From a virus, in IMG/VR virus record IMGVR_UViG_3300027917_001949, positions 64,001 through 128,000 of that record: 64,000 bases of DNA, one strand, 5' to 3'. The notes below the pieces were generated by a model. It was not told the DNA's origin, did no database searches, and saw only the letters and a list, made by a program, of their open reading frames with translations. Shown piece after piece: positions 79 to 53,520 of this stretch (the stretch's first letter is position 1; every line of letters begins with the position of its first letter). The position numbers were made by a program, and so were the translations under genes.

Positions 79-154
79 GCTCCCGTAGCTGAATTGGAAC
101 AGCAACTCCCTTCTAAGGAGAAGTATAAGGGTTCGAGTCCCTTCGGGAGTACCA
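79..154 (+). tRNA. trnR: tRNA-Arg(TCT)
   Basis: Acceptor GCTCCCG/CGGGAGT, anticodon loop CT-TCT-AA, GTTCGAGTC T-loop, encoded CCA. Confidence 0.93.
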
Positions 155-376
155 ATGAATACTCAATTAACCGGAGTTCTGATTGAGCACACCAGTCACA
201 ATAACAACATTGACGAGGTTATTGCGGCAATGAAGGGTGTGCGACTTGATGAGTATCTTGGTTACGTTGCACCAAATTATGTGATAACATTTCGAATGGT
301 TTTGTTTCTTTGTAAACATGCTGGTACTAACTGTGATGACTGTGAACTACGTTTCAAATGTTGGACATTAAAATAA
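155..376 (+). CDS. Hypothetical protein with C-terminal Cys module (CDDCELRFKCWT)
   Basis: ATG directly follows tRNA CCA; recurrent motif. Confidence 0.75.
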   Translation: MNTQLTGVLIEHTSHNNNIDEVIAAMKGVRLDEYLGYVAPNYVITFRMVLFLCKHAGTNCDDCELRFKCWTLK

Positions 377-379
377 GAC

Positions 380-408
380 TTGACAAAGTCGAAAAAATAT
401 GATATAAT
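380..408 (+). promoter_or_regulatory. Sigma70-type promoter
   Basis: TTGACA-17 nt-TATAAT with extended -10 TG. Confidence 0.8.
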
Positions 409-419
409 AGAAGGAGAGC

Positions 420-530
420 ATGGAGAAGATTTTAGAAGTATTTTGTAGAGTTTTTGGTCATGACCATACATACAATCATGGTGAACAGATTTGTAGTGTA
501 TGCGGTAATGTCAAAGAAGACGACGAGTAG
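420..530 (+). CDS. Small Cys/His protein (MEKILEVFCRVFGHDH...CSVCG)
   Basis: AGAAGGAG SD upstream; 36 aa ORF read by hand. Confidence 0.55.
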   Translation: MEKILEVFCRVFGHDHTYNHGEQICSVCGNVKEDDE

Positions 531-539
531 TCGTCAAAT

Positions 540-620
540 CTCGCTGTAGTCGGGGGAGTTTCCTAAACTCTTAGCCGTAAGAGGTATCTGTAAATGAGGG
601 TTCAAGTCCCTCCAGCGAGT
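540..620 (+). ncRNA. Atypical tRNA-like RNA (acceptor and T arm, no normal D arm; CCT anticodon-like loop)
   Basis: CTCGCTG/CAGCGAG stem, GAGGG-TTCAAGT-CCCTC T arm, GAGT-TTCCTAA-ACTC hairpin. Confidence 0.6.
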
Positions 621-621
621 C

Positions 622-696
622 GGGGACGAGTACAGCCGATGAAAAGGTATTCAAAGGTAATTGCTGTATGACTTGCAATACTGGTACTCCCCAACA
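622..696 (+). ncRNA. 75-nt GGGGA...TCCCCAACA structured RNA candidate (copy A)
   Basis: Terminal stem GGGG(ACG)AGTAC/GTACTCCCC; same length and termini as 7174-7248. Confidence 0.45.
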
Positions 697-697
697 T

Positions 698-774
698 GCG
701 GGTATGATGCAATTGGCAGACATGCTACGCTTAGAACGTAGATTTTGCAGGTTCGAGTCCTGCTACCCGCACCA
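698..774 (+). tRNA. trnL: tRNA-Leu(TAG), short variable loop
   Basis: GCGGGTA/TACCCGC, CTACG-CTTAGAA-CGTAG, CCA. Confidence 0.92.
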
Positions 775-890
775 TACTAATATACTGAGGGAATCTGAAA
801 AAGATGAGACTGGAAGTTGATGGTTACTATCCCAGTCATGGGTGTCCGAGAAGCGGCAATGGTGGAGCGTCCATAGTAGGTGTATTAGTA
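775..890 (+). ncRNA. Structured intergenic RNA candidate
   Basis: 12-bp closing stem TACTAATATACT/GGTGTATTAGTA, internal GACTGG/CCAGTC hairpin; fills the gap between two tRNAs. Confidence 0.4.
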
Positions 891-894
891 CTAC

Positions 895-970
895 GGTGCA
901 TTGGTGTTAATGGTGAGCATACTACCCTGTCAAGGTTGAGGGAGGGGTTCGTGTCCCCTATGCACCGCCA
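895..970 (+). tRNA. trnD: tRNA-Asp(GTC)
   Basis: GGTGCAT/ATGCACC, loop CT-GTC-AA, CCA. Confidence 0.88.
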
Positions 971-1246
971 ATGAATAAGATTGTCCGTTATCGGATTCTT
1001 TTCAGTGATGAGTTTAAAGAAGGTGTGATACAATGTAGCACTACGCTATGCGGTGACTGTCCGGTCAGGTTTAAATGCTGGACAAGTCGTGTGGTCAGTG
1101 ACTACTTTTCTATCGCTTTCGAGGTAACACCGTATGAGCTTTTCTCGCTACAGTGGTTTAAGTTTGGAGAAAAGTTTAACGGAATGAAATATGAAACGGA
1201 CACTAAAAAACGATTGGTAGAGTGGCGACGTAGCCAAGAGGTTTAA
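971..1246 (+). CDS. Hypothetical Cys-module protein (CGDCPVRFKCWT)
   Basis: ATG right after CCA; 3' end overlaps tRNA-Cys. Confidence 0.75.
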   Translation: MNKIVRYRILFSDEFKEGVIQCSTTLCGDCPVRFKCWTSRVVSDYFSIAFEVTPYELFSLQWFKFGEKFNGMKYETDTKKRLVEWRRSQEV

Positions 1247-1297
1247 GGCGGCTGTCTGCAAAACAGCTTTTCATGGGTTCGAATCCCATCGTCGCCT
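1224..1297 (+). tRNA. trnC: tRNA-Cys(GCA), CCA not encoded
   Basis: GGCGACG/CGTCGCC, U73, GCTGT-CTGCAAA-ACAGC. Confidence 0.93.
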
Positions 1298-1299
1298 CA

Positions 1300-1647
1300 A
1301 TGAGTCCTAACGAATTATGTTTGGAGATTGCGAAAGCAATCCACGTACCATCAAGGTATATAGAGTTTGATACGAGTAAATATATCTATAAGTGTACGTG
1401 CGGTCTCTGTGACGAAGCTTGGACACATGAGATAGTGCGTGAAGCATTTGTTGCAGAAGATGAGGTTGAACAAAGACGGCTTCAAGGTTTGATGTGGTAT
1501 TACCACCGAACTAGAATTGGGGGTAACATATTCATTTTAAGTAATATGATGTGTTATGAACTTGGTCGCAGGTCTGGTTTACTGCAAGCATGTAACGACT
1601 GTACTCATAGGTACAAATGTATCACTAATAGTTTTATTCTGGTGTAG
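1300..1647 (+). CDS. Hypothetical Cys-module protein (CNDCTHRYKCIT)
   Basis: Start reassigned to ATG 1300 just after tRNA-Cys. Confidence 0.7.
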   Translation: MSPNELCLEIAKAIHVPSRYIEFDTSKYIYKCTCGLCDEAWTHEIVREAFVAEDEVEQRRLQGLMWYYHRTRIGGNIFILSNMMCYELGRRSGLLQACNDCTHRYKCITNSFILV

Positions 1648-1712
1648 TACAAAGGTAGTGCACTCGGCTGTTAACCGAGGATATAGTGGTTCGAGTCCAC
1701 TCACCAGAGCCA
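1638..1712 (+). tRNA. trnN: tRNA-Asn(GTT)
   Basis: TCTGGTG/CACCAGA, CTCGG-CTGTTAA-CCGAG, CCA. Confidence 0.93.
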
Positions 1713-1994
1713 ATGTTAATATTTGAAGTAGTACGAGATAGAGAGTTAAAGGTAGCATACGTTAACAGACTTGATTGCGGTGCTCGTGATTGTAATCAAT
1801 GTATCGGACGCTTCATTTGTTTTACCCAAAAAACTGGGTATTTCATGGGTGAGAAAGGTCTTATAATGGAGGAAGAACAGGCTAGACGATTAAGACACCA
1901 TCCATCTATCGAAGTAAACATGTTTTACGATGGGCAGAGACACGCAGTGGGTAAGAAATGGGACGGGGATAACTATGTCCCAGAGTTTGAATAA
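1713..1994 (+). CDS. Hypothetical Cys-module protein (CNQCIGRFICFT)
   Basis: ATG directly after CCA; stop directly before tRNA-Glu. Confidence 0.72.
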   Translation: MLIFEVVRDRELKVAYVNRLDCGARDCNQCIGRFICFTQKTGYFMGEKGLIMEEEQARRLRHHPSIEVNMFYDGQRHAVGKKWDGDNYVPEFE

Positions 1995-2072
1995 GGCAGC
2001 ATGGACTAATCTGGTTATGTCACCACTCTTTCAAAGTGGAGATTACGGGTTCAAATCCCGTTGCTGCTACCA
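1995..2072 (+). tRNA. trnE: tRNA-Glu(TTC)
   Basis: GGCAGCA/TGCTGCT, CCACT-CTTTCAA-AGTGG, CCA. Confidence 0.93.
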
Positions 2073-2081
2073 TGATAGTAT

Positions 2082-2157
2082 AGCGGGGTGGAGCAGTGGT
2101 TAGCTCGACTGGCTCATAACCAGTAGGTCGAGGGTTCAAATCCCTCCCCCGCCACCA
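2082..2157 (+). tRNA. trnM: tRNA-Met(CAT), initiator-like
   Basis: AGCGGGG/CCCCGCC with 1:72 mismatch, loop CT-CAT-AA, CCA. Confidence 0.9.
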
Positions 2158-2532
2158 ATGGAATATTGCACTTATAATAGGATATGTGCTAATAAGATAA
2201 GTTGTTTGGAGTGGACCGATGTCGGTACTTGTGATTATTATGGTCACTACCGACGGGTAACACCACCAGAGAAAACGGTTTATCACATGCGGAGTCAGGA
2301 TTGTCAACACCTTACTCGTACCATCACTCCAGAGCATCAGAAGTTATGCGAAGATTGTGACCATAGATTTTACTGTTGGACTTCTGAATACTGGGGTAAT
2401 GATATGTATGAGCAACATAAGCATTATATCTATGTTAAGAGTACTGCAATAGCACGAGCACGTAATATCGCTCGTCAAGAGAAGGAAGCACGGTTGCTTA
2501 GTATTGAAACATATGGATTGACAAGTGCGTAA
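2158..2532 (+). CDS. Hypothetical Cys-module protein (CEDCDHRFYCWT)
   Basis: ATG directly after CCA. Confidence 0.72.
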   Translation: MEYCTYNRICANKISCLEWTDVGTCDYYGHYRRVTPPEKTVYHMRSQDCQHLTRTITPEHQKLCEDCDHRFYCWTSEYWGNDMYEQHKHYIYVKSTAIARARNIARQEKEARLLSIETYGLTSA

Positions 2533-2827
2533 AGGTATCAAGATACCGAAATTAAGTGTACGTTTATGTAATAACTGCGGCTTAATCATGGTCGTCCAGG
2601 GTGACAGTCAATGGCTTTCGTGTCGTAGATGTCGTTCGAAACACCTGAAATTCTTGTGTTCCACTGAAGAGAATGATATTACAACAGGTATGATGGAAGA
2701 GTGTAATACCTGTAAGCATCGATTTAGATGTATTACTCAACGGTCACGTGCATATGTATACACTCCTATTTATCGAAACTCCGAGGGTGTGAGACGGAAA
2801 ATTGGACAACGTTCAAGACCACGATGA
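2525..2827 (+). CDS. Zn-ribbon plus Cys-module protein (CNTCKHRFRCIT)
   Basis: CNNC/CRRC pairs plus recurrent motif. Confidence 0.65.
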   Translation: MRKGIKIPKLSVRLCNNCGLIMVVQGDSQWLSCRRCRSKHLKFLCSTEENDITTGMMEECNTCKHRFRCITQRSRAYVYTPIYRNSEGVRRKIGQRSRPR

Positions 2828-2833
2828 TTTTAT

Positions 2834-2905
2834 TTCCCCGTAGTCTAATTGGTATGACTGCTGGCTCTGAACCAGTCAATTCAGGTTCGAATCCTGACGG
2901 GGGAA
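2834..2905 (+). tRNA. trnQ: tRNA-Gln(CTG), CCA not encoded
   Basis: TTCCCCG/CGGGGGA, GCTGG-CTCTGAA-CCAGT. Confidence 0.9.
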
Positions 2906-2908
2906 CAG

Positions 2909-3181
2909 ATGAAGCGAGTATTTAAGCTAAATAAAAGCGGTAATAATACTTACATATGTATGGGTGGTGGATGTGATAGATGTTGTATGAGATTTAAGTG
3001 CTTTTCTGTTAGTAAGTATGAGTATTTTGTCGTTGACTGGCATCTGATACACACCAATGAAAGCCCGACAAAATACTTGGAACGGCAGACTCATAGCAGA
3101 GTGTACGTGAAAGGAAGTAAACGATATAACAAAGCATTGTTAGACATGGGAATATCACCATTGTTGTTTACAACCTATTAG
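2909..3181 (+). CDS. Hypothetical Cys-module protein (CDRCCMRFKCFS)
   Basis: Starts 3 nt after tRNA; last base of TAG is base 1 of the next tRNA. Confidence 0.7.
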   Translation: MKRVFKLNKSGNNTYICMGGGCDRCCMRFKCFSVSKYEYFVVDWHLIHTNESPTKYLERQTHSRVYVKGSKRYNKALLDMGISPLLFTTY

Positions 3182-3255
3182 GCGTTGTAACCCAACCAGG
3201 CAGAGGTAACTGGCTAAGAACCAGTGAAGTGCAGGTTCGAATCCTGTCAACGCCA
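3181..3255 (+). tRNA. trnL: tRNA-Leu(AAG), short variable loop, CCA not encoded
   Basis: GGCGTTG/CAACGCC, ACTGG-CTAAGAA-CCAGT, A73. Confidence 0.88.
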
Positions 3256-3256
3256 C

Positions 3257-3487
3257 ATGAGGAATCCAGATAGAATACCTTTAATATTGGAAACCATATA
3301 TGAGATATGGATAGAAAACCCAGATTTAAGGTTGATGCAACTTTTAGGTAATTGTTTTTCTCCGGCAGATAATTACCACCGTGAGGATGACGTATTACTT
3401 GAACGATTGCGACAAGTATATGGTAAGTCGAGTGAACGCTCTACGAGAGAGGAAAGTCCGAACACCGCAGAGCAGGATGCAGGGTAA
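3257..3487 (+). CDS. Conserved phage-type protein (MRNPDRI...NPDLRLMQL; DUF1040/YihD-like)
   Basis: Recognisable N-terminal pattern; 3' end overlaps rnpB. Confidence 0.65.
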   Translation: MRNPDRIPLILETIYEIWIENPDLRLMQLLGNCFSPADNYHREDDVLLERLRQVYGKSSERSTREESPNTAEQDAG

Positions 3488-3820
3488 CACCCTGGCAGAG
3501 TAATCTGACGACTAGTGCAACAGAGACGAGTCAGTAGTTCGAGGTATGGGGTATTGGTAGCTCATATCCCTGTGGAATAGTATGGTTGTTTCTCTATATA
3601 GACACGTCATCGTACTGTGGAGGATGGCTACTTTCAGTAGGACTTACTGGGTGAAACGGGTAAACTCCATCCGGTGCAACCCCAAGCAGAAAGCAAATCG
3701 GCGATTCCGTTTAAGACCTGCTCGGTCAAGCTTTCGGGTCGGGGGCAAGGAGTTTAATGGTAACATTAAACCAAGATAAATGTTCACATAGTACAGAATT
3801 CGGCTTATAGATTTACCATA
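3419..3820 (+). ncRNA. rnpB: RNase P RNA (bacterial type A-like)
   Basis: 11-bp P1 TATGGTAAGTC/GATTTACCATA, GAGGAAAGTCC (3449), AGTGCAACAGAGA, GGGTGAAACGGGTAAACTCC..GGTGCAA, ACAGAATTCGGCTTA (3793). Confidence 0.95.
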
Positions 3821-3824
3821 TTAA

Positions 3825-3900
3825 GTGTCCGAAGTGTAACGGTTGTGCACGGGAGATTGTGGCTCTCTCTGAGTGGGTTCGATTCCCACCGGACACTCCA
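3825..3900 (+). tRNA. trnH: tRNA-His(GTG)
   Basis: GTGTCCG/CGGACAC, loop TT-GTG-GC, CCA. Confidence 0.9.
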
Positions 3901-4124
3901 TGTACCTTATCGCAAATAACTATCGATATTCCTACAGTAGAGAATATCCATACTTTAACGGTGACCTTGTCGTATGTTGGCAAGATATACCATGTGAGGA
4001 ATGTAAAGATAGGTTTTATTGCTTTACCCATGTAACTCACGTAAACAGTCCTTATTTTAGTTTAAGTGATGAACTTAGAAGGAGACCGAGTAGTGCAGAC
4101 TTATCTCAGAAGCAAGATACGTAA
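3900..4124 (+). CDS. Hypothetical Cys-module protein (CEECKDRFYCFT)
   Basis: ATG uses the terminal A of the tRNA-His CCA. Confidence 0.65.
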   Translation: MYLIANNYRYSYSREYPYFNGDLVVCWQDIPCEECKDRFYCFTHVTHVNSPYFSLSDELRRRPSSADLSQKQDT

Positions 4125-4440
4125 TTTAGTAGTTACTGATGTTAACGTCAGTTACGATGGAAGTATTAGTTTAGACCCAGAATTAATGGAAATGGCTGGC
4201 ATTTCCCCGTTCGAACAAGTTCATGTGCTTAATGTTACGAATGGTGAACGGTTCATAACATATGCAATTAAGGGTGAAAAGGATGAGGTTTGTGTGAATG
4301 GTGCGGCAGCTCATTTGGTGGAGTTTAACGATGTATTAATGGTTCTTACCTATGAGATTGTTGACCATGGTGTGGTAAGACATTACGCTAATCACCCAAC
4401 TATAGTCGATGCCGAAGCACGGCACAAGTATTTGATATAA
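4093..4440 (+). CDS. panD: Aspartate 1-decarboxylase (pyruvoyl-dependent)
   Basis: SKI, YDGSIS self-cleavage site, NGERFITYAI, NGAAAH motifs; AAGGAG SD before GTG. Confidence 0.9.
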   Translation: MQTYLRSKIRNLVVTDVNVSYDGSISLDPELMEMAGISPFEQVHVLNVTNGERFITYAIKGEKDEVCVNGAAAHLVEFNDVLMVLTYEIVDHGVVRHYANHPTIVDAEARHKYLI

Positions 4441-4442
4441 TT

Positions 4443-4518
4443 GCGGATGAAATTCATTTGGTTGAATGCTGCGTTGCCAACGCAGATGTAGCGGGTTCGA
4501 ATCCCGCCATCCGCTCCA
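4443..4518 (+). tRNA. trnG: tRNA-Gly(GCC)
   Basis: GCGGATG/CATCCGC, U73, CTGCG-TTGCCAA-CGCAG. Confidence 0.93.
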
Positions 4519-4519
4519 C

Positions 4520-4593
4520 GCTAGAGTGATGCAACTGGCAGACATGTCCGTCTCAAAAACGGGATTTTGAGGGTTCGAATCCCTCCTCTAGCA
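4520..4593 (+). tRNA. trnL: tRNA-Leu(CAA), short variable loop, CCA not encoded
   Basis: GCTAGAG/CTCTAGC, loop CT-CAA-AA. Confidence 0.9.
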
Positions 4594-4665
4594 CATGAAA
4601 ACAAATCGATTAGATTTCGTTTTATTGATATTTTTTATAGCTATGTTTGTAGCATTGGCATTTTT

Positions 4666-4740
4666 GGGAGTGTCGGTTAATGGATAAACCAACGGATTCC
4701 AAACCCGTGACTGAGAGTTCGAATCTTTCCACTCCCGCCA
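4666..4740 (+). tRNA. trnW: tRNA-Trp(CCA)
   Basis: GGGAGTG/CACTCCC, G73, loop TT-CCA-AA. Confidence 0.9.
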
Positions 4741-4748
4741 AATCTATC

Positions 4749-4940
4749 GTGGTAGATACTGGTATACTTGGAATGGTAGGGAACATTGGCAGTTTCACAG
4801 TTAGATGTTTCGGTGACAACTGTGAGGAATGTTTTTTGCGGTTTAAATGCTATACTACTCGTTCTGATGAGATACATATTCATATGGATGAGTGGTTTAA
4901 AGTGAAACCGAAAATCGTTTATACACGAGTAGAGGTATGA
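4749..4940 (+). CDS. Hypothetical Cys-module protein (CEECFLRFKCYT)
   Basis: Recurrent motif; start uncertain, placed after tRNA-Trp. Confidence 0.6.
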   Translation: MVDTGILGMVGNIGSFTVRCFGDNCEECFLRFKCYTTRSDEIHIHMDEWFKVKPKIVYTRVEV

Positions 4941-5245
4941 TGCGTGGTAAAAGATTACGTGATGCGACTATAAAAGCTGAACATACTTTCGAGAAATATC
5001 AGGGCTATAATCCACGGGATGAGAAGCTATTAACGGCTCGTTGGATACCTTGGACAGAGGACGAAATAGCACGTACCGTAGGAATTTTTAGAAAAACTAA
5101 AGTACCATGTTCATGTGTAATGTGTGGTAATCCAAGAAGATACTTTGGAGAATTGACATTCGGAGAGATAAGACAACATTTAGATGCTGATGCACAATGT
5201 GAAGAAGTAGATTGGTATCATAAAAAAGTAAGATGGTCGGTGTAG
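4937..5245 (+). CDS. Conserved phage-type protein (PCSCxMCGNPRR)
   Basis: ATGA-coupled; Cys motif; overlaps tRNA-Leu(TAA) 5' end. Confidence 0.7.
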   Translation: MMRGKRLRDATIKAEHTFEKYQGYNPRDEKLLTARWIPWTEDEIARTVGIFRKTKVPCSCVMCGNPRRYFGELTFGEIRQHLDADAQCEEVDWYHKKVRWSV

Positions 5246-5312
5246 CCCAACTGGCAGAGGTGATAGGCTTAAACCCTATTCAGTGTGAGTTCGAATCTCA
5301 CCACCGACACCA
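5236..5312 (+). tRNA. trnL: tRNA-Leu(TAA), short variable loop
   Basis: GTCGGTG/CACCGAC, ATAGG-CTTAAAC-CCTAT, CCA. Confidence 0.92.
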
Positions 5313-5328
5313 AGCCATATACTGGGTA

Positions 5329-5357
5329 TTGACAAATTGCAGTAACTGTGGTATAAT
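5329..5357 (+). promoter_or_regulatory. Perfect sigma70-type promoter
   Basis: TTGACA-17-TATAAT with TG extension. Confidence 0.85.
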
Positions 5358-5363
5358 GGTATT

Positions 5364-5505
5364 GTAACCTGATGAGGGAGATGCCTAACTAGCCGTAGTG
5401 AAGGGCAGATGCGGGAAAATCTAACCGGTGGTTCTAGGGGATTAGCACCCATGCTAGATAGTTAAAAGTCCATCGTGGAAGGTAGACACCCTGACTCAGG
5501 TTCGC
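5364..5505 (+). ncRNA. Rod-shaped RNA candidate, possibly 6S-like
   Basis: Begins at predicted TSS; AACCTGA/TCAGGTT, AGGG/CCCT, TGCCT/AGGTA, ATCTA/TAGAT, GGTG/CACC nested pairings. Confidence 0.45.
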
Positions 5506-5507
5506 AA

Positions 5508-5584
5508 GCTGACTTAGCTCATTCTGGTAGAGCGACAGGTTGAAGCCCTGTGCGTAGGTGGTTCGATTCCGCCAGTCAGCACCA
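5508..5584 (+). tRNA. trnF: tRNA-Phe(GAA)
   Basis: GCTGACT/AGTCAGC, ACAGG-TTGAAGC-CCTGT, CCA. Confidence 0.93.
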
Positions 5585-5745
5585 TGGAAATTAATTGTTA
5601 TGAATGTCCCTTAACTCATGCGTGTAGTGTAAGAGCACGTAAGGAAGTGGGACGAGTGTGGGATGGTATAATTGAATCTTGGGAACTTAATGATTGTCCA
5701 CTCTACAGATTACTTCAAATAATGGAAGCAATTAAGTATCTTTAA
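5584..5745 (+). CDS. 53-aa Cys protein (CYECPLTHAC)
   Basis: Hand-translated; ATG overlaps CCA; stop 1 nt before tRNA-Tyr. Confidence 0.55.
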   Translation: MEINCYECPLTHACSVRARKEVGRVWDGIIESWELNDCPLYRLLQIMEAIKYL

Positions 5746-5746
5746 T

Positions 5747-5833
5747 GGCGTAGCGGCAACGTGGGAGAGTTGCCCTGGTCTGTAAAACCAGTGTCCTTGG
5801 GCTTAGTAGGTTCGAATCCTATCTGCGCCACCA
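5747..5833 (+). tRNA. trnY: tRNA-Tyr(GTA)
   Basis: GGCGTAG/CTGCGCC, loop CT-GTA-AA, long variable arm, CCA. Confidence 0.92.
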
Positions 5834-5834
5834 A

Positions 5835-6074
5835 ATGTTAAAAGAATTACGTCAAGCTAAAAAATTATACTGTTATCATTGTGATGCATTGTATGAACCA
5901 GTATCATTTTTAACGTGTCCGTCATGCGGTACACCACTTGTTACGTGTTGGTGGGGATTGATTTACGGAATGAATAAGGACGAAATTCATAAATTATGTC
6001 CTGATTGTAAGAATAGATTCTGGTGTTGGACACAGCGACCAGAACTACCCACAATGAGTGGGACATACATGTAA
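5835..6074 (+). CDS. Zn-ribbon plus Cys-module protein (CPDCKNRFWCWT)
   Basis: CYHC..CPSC plus motif; starts 1 nt after CCA. Confidence 0.72.
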   Translation: MLKELRQAKKLYCYHCDALYEPVSFLTCPSCGTPLVTCWWGLIYGMNKDEIHKLCPDCKNRFWCWTQRPELPTMSGTYM

Positions 6075-6077
6075 AAT

Positions 6078-6151
6078 GGGGGTTTAGTTCAGTGGGAGAA
6101 CACTTCCCTTGCAAGGAAGGAAGACGAGTTCGAGTCTCGTAACCTCCACCA
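6078..6151 (+). tRNA. trnA: tRNA-Ala(TGC)
   Basis: GGGGGTT/AACCTCC with G3:U70, loop CT-TGC-AA. Confidence 0.93.
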
Positions 6152-6153
6152 AG

Positions 6154-6648
6154 ATGATTAAACCAAAACTTGGTGAAATTAGAACTGGTAAAGAACTTGG
6201 ATATATATCAAGGAACAAGCATATTGGTCATGCTTGTGAAATATGCGGCAAATTACGTTGGGTTCGTTTGATAGGTGGTAAACCACAGCGAACAAAATGC
6301 GAAGCACATAACGGTGGTAACTATGTAGATAGCAGTGGTAATGCTGCTGGTAATTTTAAACATGGTTTTCGTAATACTAGATTGTATCGAGTATGGAAAG
6401 GGATGAAACAGCGGTGTTATTTACCAACATTTGATTCGTATAAAACGTATGGTGCTCGTGGTATTAAAGTTTGTGACGAGTGGCATGAATTTATTCCATT
6501 CAAAGATTGGGCATTATCACACGGATATTCAGATGACCTATGTATAGACAGAATTGATAATGATGGGAATTATGAGCCGGATAACTGTCAATTTCTTACT
6601 CGAAGTGAAAATAGTCGTAAACAAAAATTAGATAGACTCGGTGTGTAG
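6154..6648 (+). CDS. HNH-family (putative homing) endonuclease
   Basis: RLYRVWKGMKQRC, YGARGIKVCDEW, IDRIDNDGNYEPDNC motifs. Confidence 0.85.
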   Translation: MIKPKLGEIRTGKELGYISRNKHIGHACEICGKLRWVRLIGGKPQRTKCEAHNGGNYVDSSGNAAGNFKHGFRNTRLYRVWKGMKQRCYLPTFDSYKTYGARGIKVCDEWHEFIPFKDWALSHGYSDDLCIDRIDNDGNYEPDNCQFLTRSENSRKQKLDRLGV

Positions 6649-6715
6649 CACAGCTTGGTAGTGCGCCTGATTTGGGGTCAGGAAGTCGTAGGTTCAAATC
6701 CTATCACACCGACCA
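6639..6715 (+). tRNA. trnP: tRNA-Pro(TGG)
   Basis: CGGTGTG/CACACCG, CCTGA-TTTGGGG-TCAGG, CCA. Confidence 0.93.
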
Positions 6716-6811
6716 ATACATATCATCTTGGAAGGATATTGTATTCATTTGGAGTATAAGCTTCAAGATTATATTTAGATACGATGGACGATACCAAGAT
6801 ATTGTCCTCGG

Positions 6812-6888
6812 CAGGGTGTACGTCAGCGGACAAGACTACCTGTTTTGGATACAGGAGGACGGTGGTTCGAATCCACCCACCCTGACCA
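6812..6888 (+). tRNA. trnP: tRNA-Pro(TGG), second divergent copy
   Basis: CAGGGTG/CACCCTG, CCTGT-TTTGGAT-ACAGG, CCA. Confidence 0.85.
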
Positions 6889-6898
6889 GAGGTGAGGA

Positions 6899-7117
6899 AT
6901 GATAAAGCATAGTATTAGTAACGAGATTATTCCAGAAGAGCAGTGGGGTGACATTGGTGGTTATTATACTCTCACTAATGATGAATTAGAAGAGTGGAGA
7001 CATAATCAAACACGTGAACAACGTAAACTTGCGTACTGGGTAAAAACAGTCGCACGTGGAAAACCGCTACTTACACTTGGTACTAATCCCGTTTTAAATG
7101 CCACTGAAGCTCATTAG
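6899..7117 (+). CDS. Hypothetical protein
   Basis: GAGGTGAGG SD; overlaps tRNA-Thr 5' end. Confidence 0.6.
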   Translation: MIKHSISNEIIPEEQWGDIGGYYTLTNDELEEWRHNQTREQRKLAYWVKTVARGKPLLTLGTNPVLNATEAH

Positions 7118-7172
7118 GATGAGCGGTGGTTTTGTAAACCACAGGTAACGGGTTCGAATCCTGTCAGTGGCT
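7100..7172 (+). tRNA. trnT: tRNA-Thr(TGT), CCA not encoded
   Basis: GCCACTG/CAGTGGC, GTGGT-TTTGTAA-ACCAC. Confidence 0.92.
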
Positions 7173-7173
7173 C

Positions 7174-7248
7174 GGGGAGAAAGAGTTATGAAGCATGAGC
7201 GATGCTGTAGCTCATTTTGGCATCATAACTAACAGCCGTTCCCCAACA
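7174..7248 (+). ncRNA. 75-nt GGGGA...TCCCCAACA structured RNA candidate (copy B)
   Basis: GGGGA/TCCCC ends; AGTTATGA/TCATAACT and ATGAGC/GCTCAT nested stems. Confidence 0.45.
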
Positions 7249-7249
7249 T

Positions 7250-7321
7250 GCTACCGAAGCTCAAAGGTTGAGCATCCGCTTCGTAAGCGGGAGATTGTGA
7301 GTTCGAGTCTCACCGGTAGCT
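7250..7321 (+). tRNA. trnT: tRNA-Thr(CGT), CCA not encoded
   Basis: GCTACCG/CGGTAGC, loop TT-CGT-AA. Confidence 0.92.
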
Positions 7322-7322
7322 C

Positions 7323-7769
7323 ATGAAGATACATGAAATAAAAGATAACTATAGTGGTTGGGATGATGTGGCGACCGTCGGTGTCTTTTATTATGATGGG
7401 ACATTCGATAATCTGAAAGACAAGACTCTTGTTATAACTACATTCGGTGAGTTATCGAGTCTCCGATATTATGGATTACCATGTAAAGCAATCTTACGAA
7501 TACGGCACGCACCGAAGCAACCATTTGAAACAACCTTTATTTTAGAAAGTGATAAGGTGGGTAAGGAAATGGCAAGAGACCAAGTTAAATTCGAAACGGA
7601 TTTAGAAACTTTGAAGTCGTTAGCTGACATAGCTGTTGACATCGAAAAGATACAACATGGTGATGTCGAGAACGTAACAGAAGCTGGTTTTGTTAGGGGT
7701 GAAGTTTACGTCAAGTGGACTCGTGGTGATACGGTAGAAATAGCATTACCCGCAAAACCACATGGCTAA
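7323..7769 (+). CDS. Hypothetical protein
   Basis: 148-aa ORF starting 1 nt after tRNA discriminator. Confidence 0.75.
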   Translation: MKIHEIKDNYSGWDDVATVGVFYYDGTFDNLKDKTLVITTFGELSSLRYYGLPCKAILRIRHAPKQPFETTFILESDKVGKEMARDQVKFETDLETLKSLADIAVDIEKIQHGDVENVTEAGFVRGEVYVKWTRGDTVEIALPAKPHG

Positions 7770-7780
7770 ATTTTTATAAT

Positions 7781-7866
7781 GGAAGGTGTCCGGCTGGACG
7801 AGGAAGCTGTCCTGAAAACAGTGGGGCTGTAAAGTCTTAGGGGTTCGAGTCCTCTACCTTCCGCCA
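7781..7866 (+). tRNA. trnS: tRNA-Ser(TGA)
   Basis: GGAAGGT/ACCTTCC, G73, long variable arm, loop CC-TGA-AA. Confidence 0.9.
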
Positions 7867-8082
7867 ATGAGATACGTTGTTACAAGACACGGTAATGTAC
7901 TTGAAGCATTCTGGTGTTATTACACTAAATGTGAGACATGTCCTAGTAGATTTAAGTGTCTCACGAGTGCTATCGCTATAGTTGATGACTGCATAAATTT
8001 AACAGGTAGCGAAGTGCGAAAGAAAATAAATGATATTATAGAGAAGCACGGTTTACATGTTGAACATCTTGCAGAAATGTAA
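7867..8082 (+). CDS. Hypothetical Cys-module protein (CETCPSRFKCLT)
   Basis: Exactly fills the gap between two tRNAs. Confidence 0.75.
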   Translation: MRYVVTRHGNVLEAFWCYYTKCETCPSRFKCLTSAIAIVDDCINLTGSEVRKKINDIIEKHGLHVEHLAEM

Positions 8083-8160
8083 TGCCGAGTAGTCTAAAAC
8101 GGTTTGGACGACTGGCTTTGACCCAGTAGGCTGAAGGTTCGACTCCTTCCTCGGCAACCA
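8083..8160 (+). tRNA. trnQ: tRNA-Gln(TTG)
   Basis: TGCCGAG/CTCGGCA, ACTGG-CTTTGAC-CCAGT, CCA. Confidence 0.93.
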
Positions 8161-8168
8161 GGCAGAAT

Positions 8169-8197
8169 TAACCCCACGCTTTCACGTGGGGTTTTTT
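8169..8197 (+). terminator. Rho-independent terminator at the convergence of the two gene blocks
   Basis: AACCCCACG-CTTTCA-CGTGGGGTT followed by T-run. Confidence 0.85.
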
Positions 8198-9467: not shown

Positions 9468-10826
9468 TTATCCAACTCGTTCACGTAGATACTCCCTCGC
9501 TTTCGCAAATGCACCTTGTCTGTCGTCTTTATCCAGCTTGCCATCAATCACGAGGTTGGTCAGGTAGTTCTTTATATTACCAACAACTTCTCCAGGTTTT
9601 AGACCAAACTCTTTCATGATTTCGTTACCATCAATTGGAGAGGTCATGGTGTCTGGTTGTTCCGCTAGGCATTCGGTAACCATTCTGGTAAGAACGTTCA
9701 TGAATTTGTAACGTGGATTCTTTGATGAACGGATGTCACATTTTACTAAGTCCATCAGTAGTCCAATGTTGTTCTCACCAACCTTGCGAACCAGACGCAT
9801 GATGATTCTCTTTTTGATTTTACCACGTACCACTTCTTTTTGAAGTACGATAGGAGTCATGTGGTACTTAATCAGATGACATACACTGTTGATGACCTCG
9901 TTGTTAAAGCGAAGTCTACGCAGTATCTTTCTTGCCTTTCGTGCACCAACGTTGTGGTGTGAGTAGAAGTGGACACCATCATCGTCCTCGACCTTAGTTT
10001 CCGGTTTACCAATATCGTGTAAGATACAGGCAAGACGGAATATCAGGTTTCGGTTACCGTGGTCAACTTTAGTACCTTTGTATAGGACAAGTAGTGAGTG
10101 CTCGTAGGCATCCTTAATGTGGTTCTTTCCCTGTTGGATGTTACGCAGTTGCATAAATTCTGGTGAGATGTAGTCCATCAGACCAGTTTGGCACAGCTTT
10201 CTCCAACCGAAAGAAGCTCTACGTGATAGCAGGATTCGACTTACCTCGTCACGTACTCTTTCTCTAGAGATAACTTGCAGTCGTTCTGGATGTTGAATAG
10301 TGACGTCGAACTTGAAGTTCAGTTCGCAGGCAAAACGGACTGCACGAAGCATTCGTAGAGGGTCTTCGTCGAATCTGTCTTCACTACCTACAACTCTGAT
10401 ACGTTTGGCATTGAGGTCTTCAACACCACCAAATGGGTCGATAATTGCACCAGTCAGCGGGTTGCGTGCCAGAGCGTTGATGGTGAAGTCTCTACGAGCT
10501 AGGTCGTTCTCAAGTGAGTAACCGAACATGACAGTTGGTTTACGTGAGTTTGAACGGTATACTTCGCTTCTGTAAGTAGTTATCTCAACGGTATGACCGT
10601 TGGCATTGAGACCTATAGTACCAAATTCCTCACCCATAGTGTATAGAGAACCGAAGTCATTTATGATTTCTTTTATCTCGTCAGGGCGGGCATTAGTAGC
10701 TAGGTCAATGTCATGTGATTCTCTACCAAGTAGTGAGTCACGCACACGACCACCGACTTCGAAAAGTTCAAAACCTTTCTCGTTGAACTTCACTGCTATT
10801 CTGTTGATTAGAGTTTCCTCGTTCAT
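9468..10826 (-). CDS. cca: CCA-adding enzyme (class II tRNA nucleotidyltransferase) with HD domain
   Basis: VGGRVRD, DIDLAT, RRDFTINALA, EDPLRMLRAVRF, LHDIGKP. Confidence 0.93.
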   Translation of the reverse strand: MNEETLINRIAVKFNEKGFELFEVGGRVRDSLLGRESHDIDLATNARPDEIKEIINDFGSLYTMGEEFGTIGLNANGHTVEITTYRSEVYRSNSRKPTVMFGYSLENDLARRDFTINALARNPLTGAIIDPFGGVEDLNAKRIRVVGSEDRFDEDPLRMLRAVRFACELNFKFDVTIQHPERLQVISRERVRDEVSRILLSRRASFGWRKLCQTGLMDYISPEFMQLRNIQQGKNHIKDAYEHSLLVLYKGTKVDHGNRNLIFRLACILHDIGKPETKVEDDDGVHFYSHHNVGARKARKILRRLRFNNEVINSVCHLIKYHMTPIVLQKEVVRGKIKKRIIMRLVRKVGENNIGLLMDLVKCDIRSSKNPRYKFMNVLTRMVTECLAEQPDTMTSPIDGNEIMKEFGLKPGEVVGNIKNYLTNLVIDGKLDKDDRQGAFAKAREYLRERVG

Positions 10827-15731: not shown

Positions 15732-16217
15732 TTATCCAAACGCTACTTTACCTTTTTCTTCTGCTGTTGTTTTACCTCGGTACGTTCCCTTCTCGTCGAT
15801 TAGAATACCGTCAAGATGGTCTACCTCATGTTCAACCACACTTGTTTCATGGACATCACGACACCTGAACTTTAGTGGTCTACCGTGAATGTCTTCACCG
15901 TACAGGGTAAGTCGTTGTGGTCGCTTAACTTCATATACTTTGTTACCTAAGCTCAGGCAACTTTCATGTACTTTAATCGAACCTTTTCGATGTTTGATAT
16001 GCGGGTTAATAATAGTATGCTCTCTGCCACGCAGCATTACAGTGATAATTCGCAACAACTCACCTACTTGTGGCGCAGCAAGACCGACACCATTATGCTC
16101 TTGACGTACTCGTGACATTTCCTCTGCTACCTCACGAGCATGTTCCATAGCTTCTTCCTCTTCTTCGACAGGAAGAGCTTTTTGTCGTAGAGTTGGGTCT
16201 GGGTCTTTTATTAACAT
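15732..16217 (-). CDS. def: Peptide deformylase
   Basis: GVGLAAPQVG, ESCLS, HEVDHLDG. Confidence 0.93.
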   Translation of the reverse strand: MLIKDPDPTLRQKALPVEEEEEAMEHAREVAEEMSRVRQEHNGVGLAAPQVGELLRIITVMLRGREHTIINPHIKHRKGSIKVHESCLSLGNKVYEVKRPQRLTLYGEDIHGRPLKFRCRDVHETSVVEHEVDHLDGILIDEKGTYRGKTTAEEKGKVAFG

Positions 16218-16370
16218 TATTCCTCCCTCACTAGGTCTACAGTTTCTTCCAATACCCACCGCAAGGTTTCAATTTCTCGGTGAATACCGGATGCCTCGAT
16301 GAGTGATGCATACTTTAACATCTCAGTTAGATTTCGAATTCTTGCTCGAATTTCCTCTTCTGTTTTCATC

Positions 16371-52341: not shown

Positions 52342-53520
52342 TTAGTCACCGCCTGCCTTAAAGTTGTATACTGGTTTCATCATAAACTCAATATCAACGG
52401 TCTCACCGATAGCATCGACTATCATGTCTTTATCCTTGTACGCCATCGGTGACTCGTCGATTGTATCCAGTGTTGCGGTAGTAGTATAAATACCGTCCAT
52501 CTGAGCCGTAAACTCATCCATTGATAGGGTTGCTTTTGCTTTCTTTCTCGATAGGATTCTTCCAGCCCCATGCGGTGCGGAGTAATTCCATTTCTGATTG
52601 CCCTTACCAATACATACCGCAACACCGTCACGCATATTGAATGGTATAACTAACCGTTCACCATCATGTGCCGCAACTGCACCCTTACGGATGATTTTAT
52701 CTTTGAAATTGATGTAATTGTGAACTGTATCGAAGGCATTGTCCGGTGATATAATCTTACCACCTGTCTGAGAAGTCGCTACACCGAAATAATTGAGTAT
52801 AATCTCAAGCATGATACCACGATTTAGTGTGGCGTAGTGTTGTGCTATTCGCATTGCCTGTAGATATTGATAACCACCATGTTCCATTGGTAAATACTCA
52901 AGATTATGATAAGCTGATGCCCCTACGAACATTTCTTTCAATAATTCTTTAGCTTTATTTTGGTAGTAATTTGCAATCTTTAACCCGAAATTTCTGCTAC
53001 CGGAATGAACCAGAAGCCAGTACGTACCATCCTCTGCTTCGTCAATCTCGATGAAATGGTTACCACCACCAAGAGTGCCAAGCGAACCTTTAACCCTGCT
53101 TGACTCTTGTTTTGTCTCATTTGCATAGTACATAATCTCACTATCATCCGGTATGTATGAATCTGGTCGATAGCCGTTTATCATTCGCTGTGAATAATTT
53201 CTTATACTGAATCCACTTGGTATATTAGCCTTGATAAAGTTGTCAAGTTCCTCGAAATCGATTGAGTGAACTGGTAACGGACATGACAACACACCACAGC
53301 CAATATCTACTCCTACTACGTTCGGTATAACATAGTTATTCATCTTTGCTGTGAAACCAATGACCGCACCAGCACCAGCATGACAGTCTGGCATGATTGC
53401 TATGTACGTTTTAGCAAATGCCGGATGATTCAAGAATGAGTATATTTGTTTTACCGTTTCCTCATCTATCTCATCAATCATGACATTTGCCGAGTTGTAT
53501 TTACCCTTGTATGTTATCAT
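52342..53520 (-). CDS. rtcB: RtcB RNA ligase
   Basis: MPDCHAG, VGVDIGCG, GTLGGGNHFIE, HSGSR, HNY, RKGA, PHGAGR, DESP.AYK. Confidence 0.96.
   Translation of the reverse strand: MITYKGKYNSANVMIDEIDEETVKQIYSFLNHPAFAKTYIAIMPDCHAGAGAVIGFTAKMNNYVIPNVVGVDIGCGVLSCPLPVHSIDFEELDNFIKANIPSGFSIRNYSQRMINGYRPDSYIPDDSEIMYYANETKQESSRVKGSLGTLGGGNHFIEIDEAEDGTYWLLVHSGSRNFGLKIANYYQNKAKELLKEMFVGASAYHNLEYLPMEHGGYQYLQAMRIAQHYATLNRGIMLEIILNYFGVATSQTGGKIISPDNAFDTVHNYINFKDKIIRKGAVAAHDGERLVIPFNMRDGVAVCIGKGNQKWNYSAPHGAGRILSRKKAKATLSMDEFTAQMDGIYTTTATLDTIDESPMAYKDKDMIVDAIGETVDIEFMMKPVYNFKAGGD

Follow-up and report, generated by a model that had tools for sequence, protein, structure and literature searches.

A complete, 153-kb tailed phage encodes, within its tRNA array, a structurally intact, full-length bacterial class A RNase P RNA; the family is a known one, whereas its setting here is new and its periphery unusual. 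RNase P is the RNA enzyme that trims new tRNAs at their 5' end, and the gene for its RNA counts as a housekeeping hallmark of cells and organelles. Phage tRNA precursors (e.g., those of T4) depend on RNase P and, to our knowledge, classical phages obtain this enzyme wholly from the host. The RNA described here is probably a working RNase P RNA that, together with the host protein RnpA, matures the tRNAs of the phage and so also cuts the tRNA-punctuated transcript.

The virus record

The window, i.e., the whole stretch of 64,000 nucleotides that was analysed, comprises bases 64001-128000 of the 152,753-bp IMG/VR virus record IMGVR_UViG_3300027917_001949; coordinates refer to the window unless stated otherwise. 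CheckV places the completeness of the record at 99% and, in a record classed as "linear, no end repeats", a 193-bp terminal direct repeat was found (genome 1-193 versus 152561-152753; 191 of 193 positions identical). PHROG profiles run against the whole record identified a tape-measure protein, tail proteins, and a portal as well as a family A DNA polymerase, a DnaB-type helicase, clamp-loader-like and ligase proteins, and a ribonucleotide reductase; the terminase large subunit gave a weak match only. The record contains exactly one copy of rnpB. A preliminary description, made from the letters of the window, had considered that the contig might be a cellular chromosome with this as its sole rnpB; the terminal repeat, the tape-measure, tail, portal, DNA polymerase, and helicase genes, and the CheckV estimate instead identify the record as a virus with phage genes.

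That the locus is an artefact, be it through a contig of cellular origin, a chimera made in assembly, or host DNA at the edge of a provirus, is hardly credible. Many of the virus-database contigs that match a generic RNase P RNA pattern do look cellular, and the matches in GenBank "phage" entries are unverified scaffolds without tRNA arrays (both described below); here, however, phage structural and replication genes lie on both sides of rnpB in a near-complete record with terminal repeats, and rnpB sits in mid-array with matching strand and skew. In addition, the rnpB locus was recovered as independent assemblies from at least three other samples, which argues against a chimeric assembly.

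An intact class A RNase P RNA core

The window contains a single match to RF00010 (RNaseP_bact_a), which scored 196.2 bits against a gathering threshold of 100 (E 5e-62; Infernal, Rfam 15) and spans model positions 1-367 untruncated. The match covers essentially the same interval as the ribozyme that had been proposed at 3419-3820, and class A, not class B (RF00011), was the best match within the clan (clan-resolved cmscan). The main features of the RNA core are as follows.

3420-3823 (+): rnpB, RNase P RNA of bacterial class A, 404 nt
3420-3429 (+): P1 5' strand, 10 bp, pairing with 3810-3819 (RNA 1-10 with 391-400)
3454-3462 (+): P4 5' strand, within GAGGAAAGUCCGAA; partner 3799-3806 in ACAGAAUUCGGCUUA (RNA 35-43 with 380-387)
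3470-3473 (+): P6 pseudoknot 5' strand GAGC; partner GCUC at 3720-3723, in the P17 loop
3514-3531 (+): P11 5' strand and J11/12 (AGUGCAACAGAGACGAGU), in which ACAGAGACGAG is invariant in the alignment
3737-3739 (+): L15 GGU, with CGGGU invariant in 7 homologues
3752-3771 (+): P18, 8 bp, with a GUAA tetraloop (CM match, pairing, covariation)

All 81 assigned pairs, which make up P1, P2, P3, P4, P5, P7-P11, the base of P12, and P15-P18, are standard, and the conserved blocks GAGGAAAGUCCG, ACAGAGA, GGGUGAAA, GCAA, CGGGU, AGAUAAAUG, and ACAGAAnnCGGCUUA are all intact; the universal motifs and the P1, P2, and P4 pairings that had been noticed by inspection are thus confirmed. P1 can be extended by two further pairs (3418-3419 with 3820-3821), the P4 helix formed by the GAGGAAAGUCC and ACAGAAnnCGGCUUA blocks shows standard pairing at 8 of 8 positions, and the loop of P9 is GUAA.

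Covariation was assessed in an alignment of seven sequences, i.e., the window RNA, four other rnpBs from virus records, and two betaproteobacterial rnpBs. In this alignment, 92.9% of cells are paired and compensatory changes occur at 59 of the 81 pairs, with none of 500 shuffles as high; as a control, sliding the partner columns by 1-3 positions reduced pairing to 32-42%. Compensatory changes were found in each of the helices P1, P2, P3, P5, P15, P16, P17, and P18, and the inner two pairs of P4 also covary among the seven homologues (GC/AU 4:3 and AU/GC 4:3). P4 shows a double compensation, with CCGAA/UUCGG in the window RNA versus CCGGG/CCCGG in other members (GG to AA matched by CC to UU), while the P6 pairing is GAGC/GCUC here versus GGGC/GCCC in L034, an rnpB from another virus contig. 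With regard to the specificity domain, the P7-P11 pairs are all standard and covarying, ACAGAGACGAG and GUGAAACG are conserved, and the base of P12 comprises 6 bp. The J11/12 region, a part of the module that reads the tRNA elbow, is accompanied by the L15 GGU, a motif known for its pairing with the 3'-CCA of tRNA, and by the J5/15 GCAA, which is invariant in the seven homologues and lies near the cleavage site.

In a FastTree phylogeny of 165 distinct rnpB cores (21 from virus contigs, with the cellular ones chosen for the window's own motifs), the window rnpB sits at the tip of a long branch (0.69 substitutions per site), and its best core identity to any of the 164 other sampled rnpBs is 64-69%. 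As the core and the helices are intact despite this long branch and low identity, the comparison indicates that the RNA has apparently been under purifying selection rather than in decay.

Peripheral departures

The window RNA differs from the E. coli pattern in three features, namely P3, P12, and P13/P14, and a further peripheral site varies between strains.

3439-3449 (+): P3, 4 bp, with an ACG triloop (CM match, pair check)
3532-3649 (+): enlarged P12, 118 nt, closed by CAGUAG/CUUACUG (RNA 113-118 with 225-230)
3649-3667 (+): J12/13 GGGUGAAA, then the P11 and P10 3' strands, with no room for P13/P14
3695-3713 (+): variable insert between P16 and P17, where sister strain L285 has 53 additional bases (L285:1335-1425)

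The enlargement of P12 that had been described from the sequence holds, as the element spans 118 nt compared to about 4-40 nt in aligned homologues; the segment of about 120 nt that had been delimited by AGTGCAACAGAGA (3514-3526) and GGGTGAAACGG (3649-3659) measures 122 nt (3527-3648). Its description as multi-hairpin holds in part: the minimum-free-energy fold does place three internal hairpins above the 6-bp base, but this fold was no more stable than that of shuffled sequence when the region was folded alone (z of 0.02 and -0.84), and the predicted interior is thus a prediction only, without statistical or comparative support. Within the genome the insert occurs only once, and it matched no additional family in Rfam.

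The sister strain L285 (ENA ERZ23486235), which was recovered through its identical 76-aa neighbouring protein, is ~94% identical to the window over 1.7 kb and carries a 457-nt rnpB that scores 187.3 bits against RF00010, above threshold. Compared to the window RNA, its core is nearly unchanged (5 substitutions, one of which converts a G-C to a G-U pair) although 53 bases are added between P16 and P17; the lineage thus tolerates insertions at two peripheral sites. P12 is identical at 117 of 118 bases in L285, and the sole change would break a predicted pair; this conservation says little about constraint, since neighbouring ORFs are equally conserved in L285. The neighbouring ORFs 2588-2827 and 3900-4124 differ by ~10% in L285, and the tRNAs are identical.

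P13 and P14 are absent from the window RNA, in which GGGUGAAA is followed by 2 nt and then by the P11 3' strand. These two helices are typical of class A but not universal, and the rnpB of L120, a betaproteobacterial metagenome-assembled genome, is arranged in the same way, a single nt standing there in place of the 43 model positions that span P13/P14; since a cellular betaproteobacterial member shows the same loss, the absence of P13/P14 does not exclude membership in class A. Loss of P13/P14 has also been called not unusual in work on CPR bacteria (PMC8172020). With a P3 of only 4 bp and without P13/P14, folding or protein binding of the phage RNA may be weakened, although cellular RNAs that lack P13/P14 exist.

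These same departures could be taken as signs that a captured cellular rnpB is riding in the tRNA array as a decaying passenger that no longer works; P3 is vestigial, P13/P14 are missing, the 5' end is overlapped by an ORF (see below), and there are large insertions without support, one within P12 and another, seen in the sister strain, between P16 and P17. We consider this quite improbable, as no core block and none of the 81 assigned helix pairs has been lost on a very long branch, P4 and P6 have kept their pairing through compensatory changes, the insertions are confined to peripheral sites, and many independent phage lineages retain such a gene.

Position within the tRNA array

The surroundings of rnpB in the window include the following features.

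79-8157 (+): portion of the tRNA array that falls in the window, its tRNAs interspersed with small ORFs, panD, and a gene for an HNH endonuclease; the whole array occupies genome 55.4-72.2 kb
380-408 (+): promoter-like site, 12/12 sigma-70 consensus with TG (consensus match only)
3181-3256 (+): tRNA-Leu(AAG), nearest upstream tRNA, 163 nt before rnpB
3257-3487 (+): 76-aa ORF, starting right after tRNA-Leu, its last 68 nt overlapping the rnpB 5' end
3825-3900 (+): tRNA-His(GUG), starting 1 base past the CM match and 5 nt past P1
5329-5357 (+): second promoter-like site, perfect sigma-70-type (consensus match only)
8170-8193 (+): strong terminator-like hairpin that closes the array, with a 9-bp stem and a T run (consensus match only)

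The Rfam scan and ARAGORN placed 21-22 tRNA genes in the window, all on the + strand, and genome-wide 32 tRNA genes are located between 55.4 and 71.3 kb, again all on the + strand; rnpB, which is co-oriented with them, does lie inside a phage tRNA array, as had been proposed. The 5' leader of tRNA-His is the 3' tail of rnpB. A consensus scan listed no promoter-like or terminator-like site directly flanking rnpB. Since the gene is co-oriented with the array, abuts tRNA-His, and has no such flanking sites, we infer that its RNA is cut from a polycistronic tRNA/ORF transcript.

The stop codon of the 76-aa ORF is a UAA in the P8 loop. This ORF was called as a gene in two other assemblies, is identical in L285, and gave a weak, below-threshold match to DUF1040. 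Because it overlaps the first 68 nt of rnpB, the 5' stretch of rnpB may serve two uses; excision of rnpB would deprive the mRNA of the 76-aa ORF of its stop codon.

Several further observations concern the composition of the array. Many small ORFs at 155-8082 (+) begin at or no more than 3 nt from a tRNA 3' end, with an ATG that directly follows the CCA of the tRNA or shares it. PanD, an aspartate 1-decarboxylase (4069-4440 (+); PF02261, 1.4e-33), and an HNH endonuclease (6154-6648 (+); phrog_374, 1e-41) are encoded among the tRNA genes. The last unit before the terminator-like hairpin is a tRNA at 8083-8157 (+) that scores 63 bits with Rfam and is absent from the ARAGORN calls. Finally, tRNA-His(GUG) has no encoded G at -1; an A is present at -1 and a U at 73, such that an A(-1):U73 pair is possible, while the usual extra pair of bacterial tRNA-His is G(-1):C73.

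The preliminary description had also suggested that the ribozyme may be tuned to atypical substrates. This idea finds no support, since nothing about the phage tRNAs appears unusual for substrates of bacterial RNase P: 22 of the 32 encode CCA, matching the L15 GGU, 19 of 32 have U at -1, and the acceptor stem of tRNA-His is an ordinary one of 7 bp. For the ten tRNAs without an encoded CCA, the CCA-adding enzyme of the phage can be considered a possible supplier. This enzyme and an RNA ligase are encoded on the opposite strand.

9468-10826 (-): CCA-adding tRNA nucleotidyltransferase (phrog_2244, 3.7e-70; PF01743, PF12627, and PF01966 over threshold)
52342-53520 (-): RtcB RNA ligase (phrog_1075, 7e-127; PF01139, 3e-67)

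Another translation-related gene, for a peptide deformylase of 161 aa (PF01327), is located at 15732-16259 (-); its Pfam match was obtained on the matching ENA contig.

Proposed protein partner and processing

A search with PF00825 for rnpA yielded no match at E<=1 in the window, where an rnpA-like gene had previously been reported as lacking, or in the whole 152,753-bp record; as a control, the same profile found rnpA in 10 of 14 named genomes. The combination of rnpB and rnpA in one genome that characterizes the bacterial holoenzyme is hence not found in the phage. As the record has no rnpA, the protein subunit of the host is the simplest partner for the RNA, and classic subunit-exchange work with E. 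coli and B. subtilis reportedly showed that bacterial P RNAs function with heterologous RnpA proteins.

From these features we infer how the RNA would be transcribed and processed, which host protein it would use, what it would cleave, and how the phage would benefit. In the scheme that we propose, rnpB would be transcribed within the long + strand tRNA/small-ORF transcript, rnpB itself having neither a promoter-like nor a terminator-like site. The 3' end of the RNA would be made by an RNase P cut at the 5' end of the abutting tRNA-His, at first by the host enzyme and later by the enzyme containing the phage RNA, and its 5' end by another nuclease. The released 404-nt RNA would then assemble with host RnpA, a step proposed because the phage is without rnpA, and the resulting enzyme would take the 5' leaders off the 32 phage tRNAs, such that the transcript would be cut at the 5' end of each tRNA. 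For the phage, the gain may be extra RNase P capacity, or capacity that is independent of transcription of the host rnpB, during infection; that this offers an advantage over using host RNase P alone is conjecture. Together, rnpB, the CCA-adding enzyme, the RtcB ligase, and the 32 tRNAs could act as a module for tRNA supply, maturation, and repair.

Three other readings take the same observations in different directions. One is based on mitochondrion-like "tRNA punctuation", in which the tRNAs mark the cuts that divide a long tRNA/small-ORF transcript into units; the embedded ribozyme would be the phage's own processor, would release itself at tRNA-His, and would use its expansions (i.e., the 118-nt P12 and the variable P16/17 insert) to dock a phage factor that replaces or supplements RnpA. 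We regard this form of the proposal as rather unlikely. Activity that dispenses with host RnpA altogether, either by the RNA alone or with an unrecognised phage protein bound to the P12 or P16/17 insertion, is unlikely as well. Such activity would agree with the lack of rnpA, with the lineage-specific peripheral expansions, and with the many small phage ORFs of no assigned function that are interleaved with the tRNAs; nevertheless, no candidate protein was identified, the interior of P12 is without structural support, and the regions generally regarded as RnpA contacts, around P2-P4 and P15, are retained apart from the short P3.

By the third reading, the RNA acts as a decoy: by sequestering host RnpA, or by competing with the host P RNA, it would cripple host tRNA maturation instead of maturing the tRNAs of the phage. 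A phage that encodes the RNA subunit without the protein subunit would be compatible with this, and the possibility of a decoy has been raised before, for an RNase P-like RNA of a poxvirus (PMC3001073). A decoy is very improbable here, as it would have no need for an intact active site (P4, J5/15 GCAA, L15 GGU) or for substrate-reading modules, all of which are conserved, and the phage's own 32 tRNAs require the same enzyme. Our preferred reading thus remains that of a working RNase P RNA that is completed by host RnpA.

Origin and recurrence in other viruses

In the tree of 165 cores, the window rnpB groups, with zero support, with two other phage forms that lack P13/P14 and with betaproteobacterial sequences. 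Genomes retrieved by a scan for ACAGAGACGAG...GTGAAACG were mostly those of Betaproteobacteria. No close cellular donor or host was identifiable by BLAST and FastTree among the 165 cores, the branch being long and unresolved. An Atlas look-up with the phage PanD for a hint as to the host gave mixed phyla. A search of IMG/VR with the DNA polymerase found no close kin of the phage, and the polymerase stretch that other rnpB-carrying records share with that of the window is at most 33% identical. The helices of rnpB are AT-rich (47% G+C versus 42% for the genome) and, together with the long branch, this fits either a long residence in phages or an unsampled donor.

A BLAST search of the window rnpB against 50,697 GenBank phage records gave no match. 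For two other phage rnpBs, the GenBank phage matches were rejected, as they consisted only of unverified faecal scaffolds without tRNA arrays and misfiled bacterial records. An exact-pattern scan of IMG/VR for the P13/P14-less junction of the window (GGUGAAA-n-GGGUAAACUCC) returned no contig. A metagenome scan for the P4-P5 variant of the window yielded 120 contigs, which were also set aside; all appear cellular (none with at least three tRNAs) and none has a large P12.

A generic P4-P5 pattern matched 34 of 2.9 million IMG/VR contigs; many of these are short contigs or proviruses without nearby tRNAs and look cellular. Loci tested from these matches all scored above the RF00010 threshold (14 of 14), and ten of the tested loci, which represent at least six distinct sequences with a G+C content of 0.40 to 0.70, lie in dense arrays of co-oriented tRNAs, often 0-6 nt from a tRNA; rnpB is hence found within a tRNA array in at least 10 IMG/VR contigs besides that of the window. 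No rnpA was found in any of five other virus records with array-type rnpBs, one of which is 100% complete at 162 kb.

Individual loci vary in form. The rnpB of L020, an IMG/VR provirus fragment, has only 269 nt (L020:5399-5667 (-), 136 bits), starts 1 nt from an upstream tRNA-Asp, overlaps a downstream tRNA-Ser call by 2 nt, and has only 4 nt between ACAGAGACGAG and GUGAAACG, i.e., essentially no P12. L013/L017 carry a 297-nt form. In L034, a 114-kb IMG/VR contig with an estimated completeness of 36%, a tmRNA (120 bits) is found ~450 nt from rnpB (203 bits; L034:636-1755); this contig is probably a fragment of a jumbo phage of about 300 kb.

Comparison with known systems

The window RNA has helices P1-P12 and P15-P18 and the P4 and P6 pseudoknots in common with M1 RNA, the class A RNA encoded by E. 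coli rnpB, and it resembles class A in its core blocks, its L15 GGU, and the GNRA loops on P9 and P18. With the betaproteobacterial L120 it further shares the J11/12 ACAGAGACGAG and a GGGUGAAA located directly before P11. Unlike cellular class A RNAs, it is encoded by a virus whose genome has no rnpA, is embedded in a tRNA array, and abuts a tRNA; its P12 is about four times the usual size and its P3 is cut to 4 bp.

A related arrangement is that of the other array-embedded rnpBs from virus records (L008/L027, L011, L013/L017, L015/L023, L019, L020, and L040), which are co-oriented with the tRNAs, often 0-6 nt from one, and above the RF00010 threshold, with no rnpA in the five records tested. 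The window has the same arrangement, with 32 co-oriented tRNAs, tRNA-His 1 nt downstream, phage hallmark genes, and no rnpA. These RNAs are not close kin of the window RNA (53-62% core identity), range from 269 to 415 nt in length, and keep P13/P14 where they are high in G+C; within the P13/P14-less set, the window RNA has the largest P12 and L020 almost none.

RNase P RNAs of organelles (i.e., yeast mitochondrial RPM1 and the rnpBs of jakobid mitochondria and plastids) offer a parallel in that the RNA is encoded in a small, dependent genome and the protein comes from another genome; RPM1 is, moreover, flanked by tRNA genes. Organellar RNAs are vertically inherited relics of endosymbionts and are often badly reduced, whereas the window RNA keeps a full bacterial core and is found in a lytic-type tailed phage. 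Organellar RNase P RNAs are described as matured from larger precursors, AT-rich, and variable in their periphery (PMC3790967; PMC3590771).

A full-text literature search, with most subscription journals outside its reach, found no paper on a phage-encoded RNase P RNA. The sole virus-encoded RNase P-like RNA found in the literature is that of camelpox virus and other orthopoxviruses, which loosely resembles RNase P RNA and did not process pre-tRNA in vitro (PMC3001073); by contrast, the phage RNA is a full, high-scoring member of class A. An artificial counterpart to the junction of ribozyme and tRNA is provided by engineered M1 RNA-pre-tRNA conjugates, in which the ribozyme can cleave the pre-tRNA to which it is covalently attached; in the phage, this junction is natural.

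Implications

Viruses are known to take over translation with tRNAs, tmRNA, synthetases, and ribosomal proteins; a bona fide and apparently selected phage copy of rnpB extends this take-over to the maturation of tRNA 5' ends, and viruses would thereby be seen to encode one of the largest ribozymes known. Such a copy would also provide a natural example in which an RNase P RNA depends on a protein subunit of foreign origin and is joined physically to its own substrate, and a set of natural variants for structure-function work, including P13/P14-less forms, a tiny P3, a giant P12, and a variable P16/17 insert. Finally, the presence of a CCA-adding enzyme, RtcB, 32 tRNAs, and rnpB in one phage suggests a self-contained module for tRNA supply and repair, which may possibly serve as a counter to host defences that target tRNAs.
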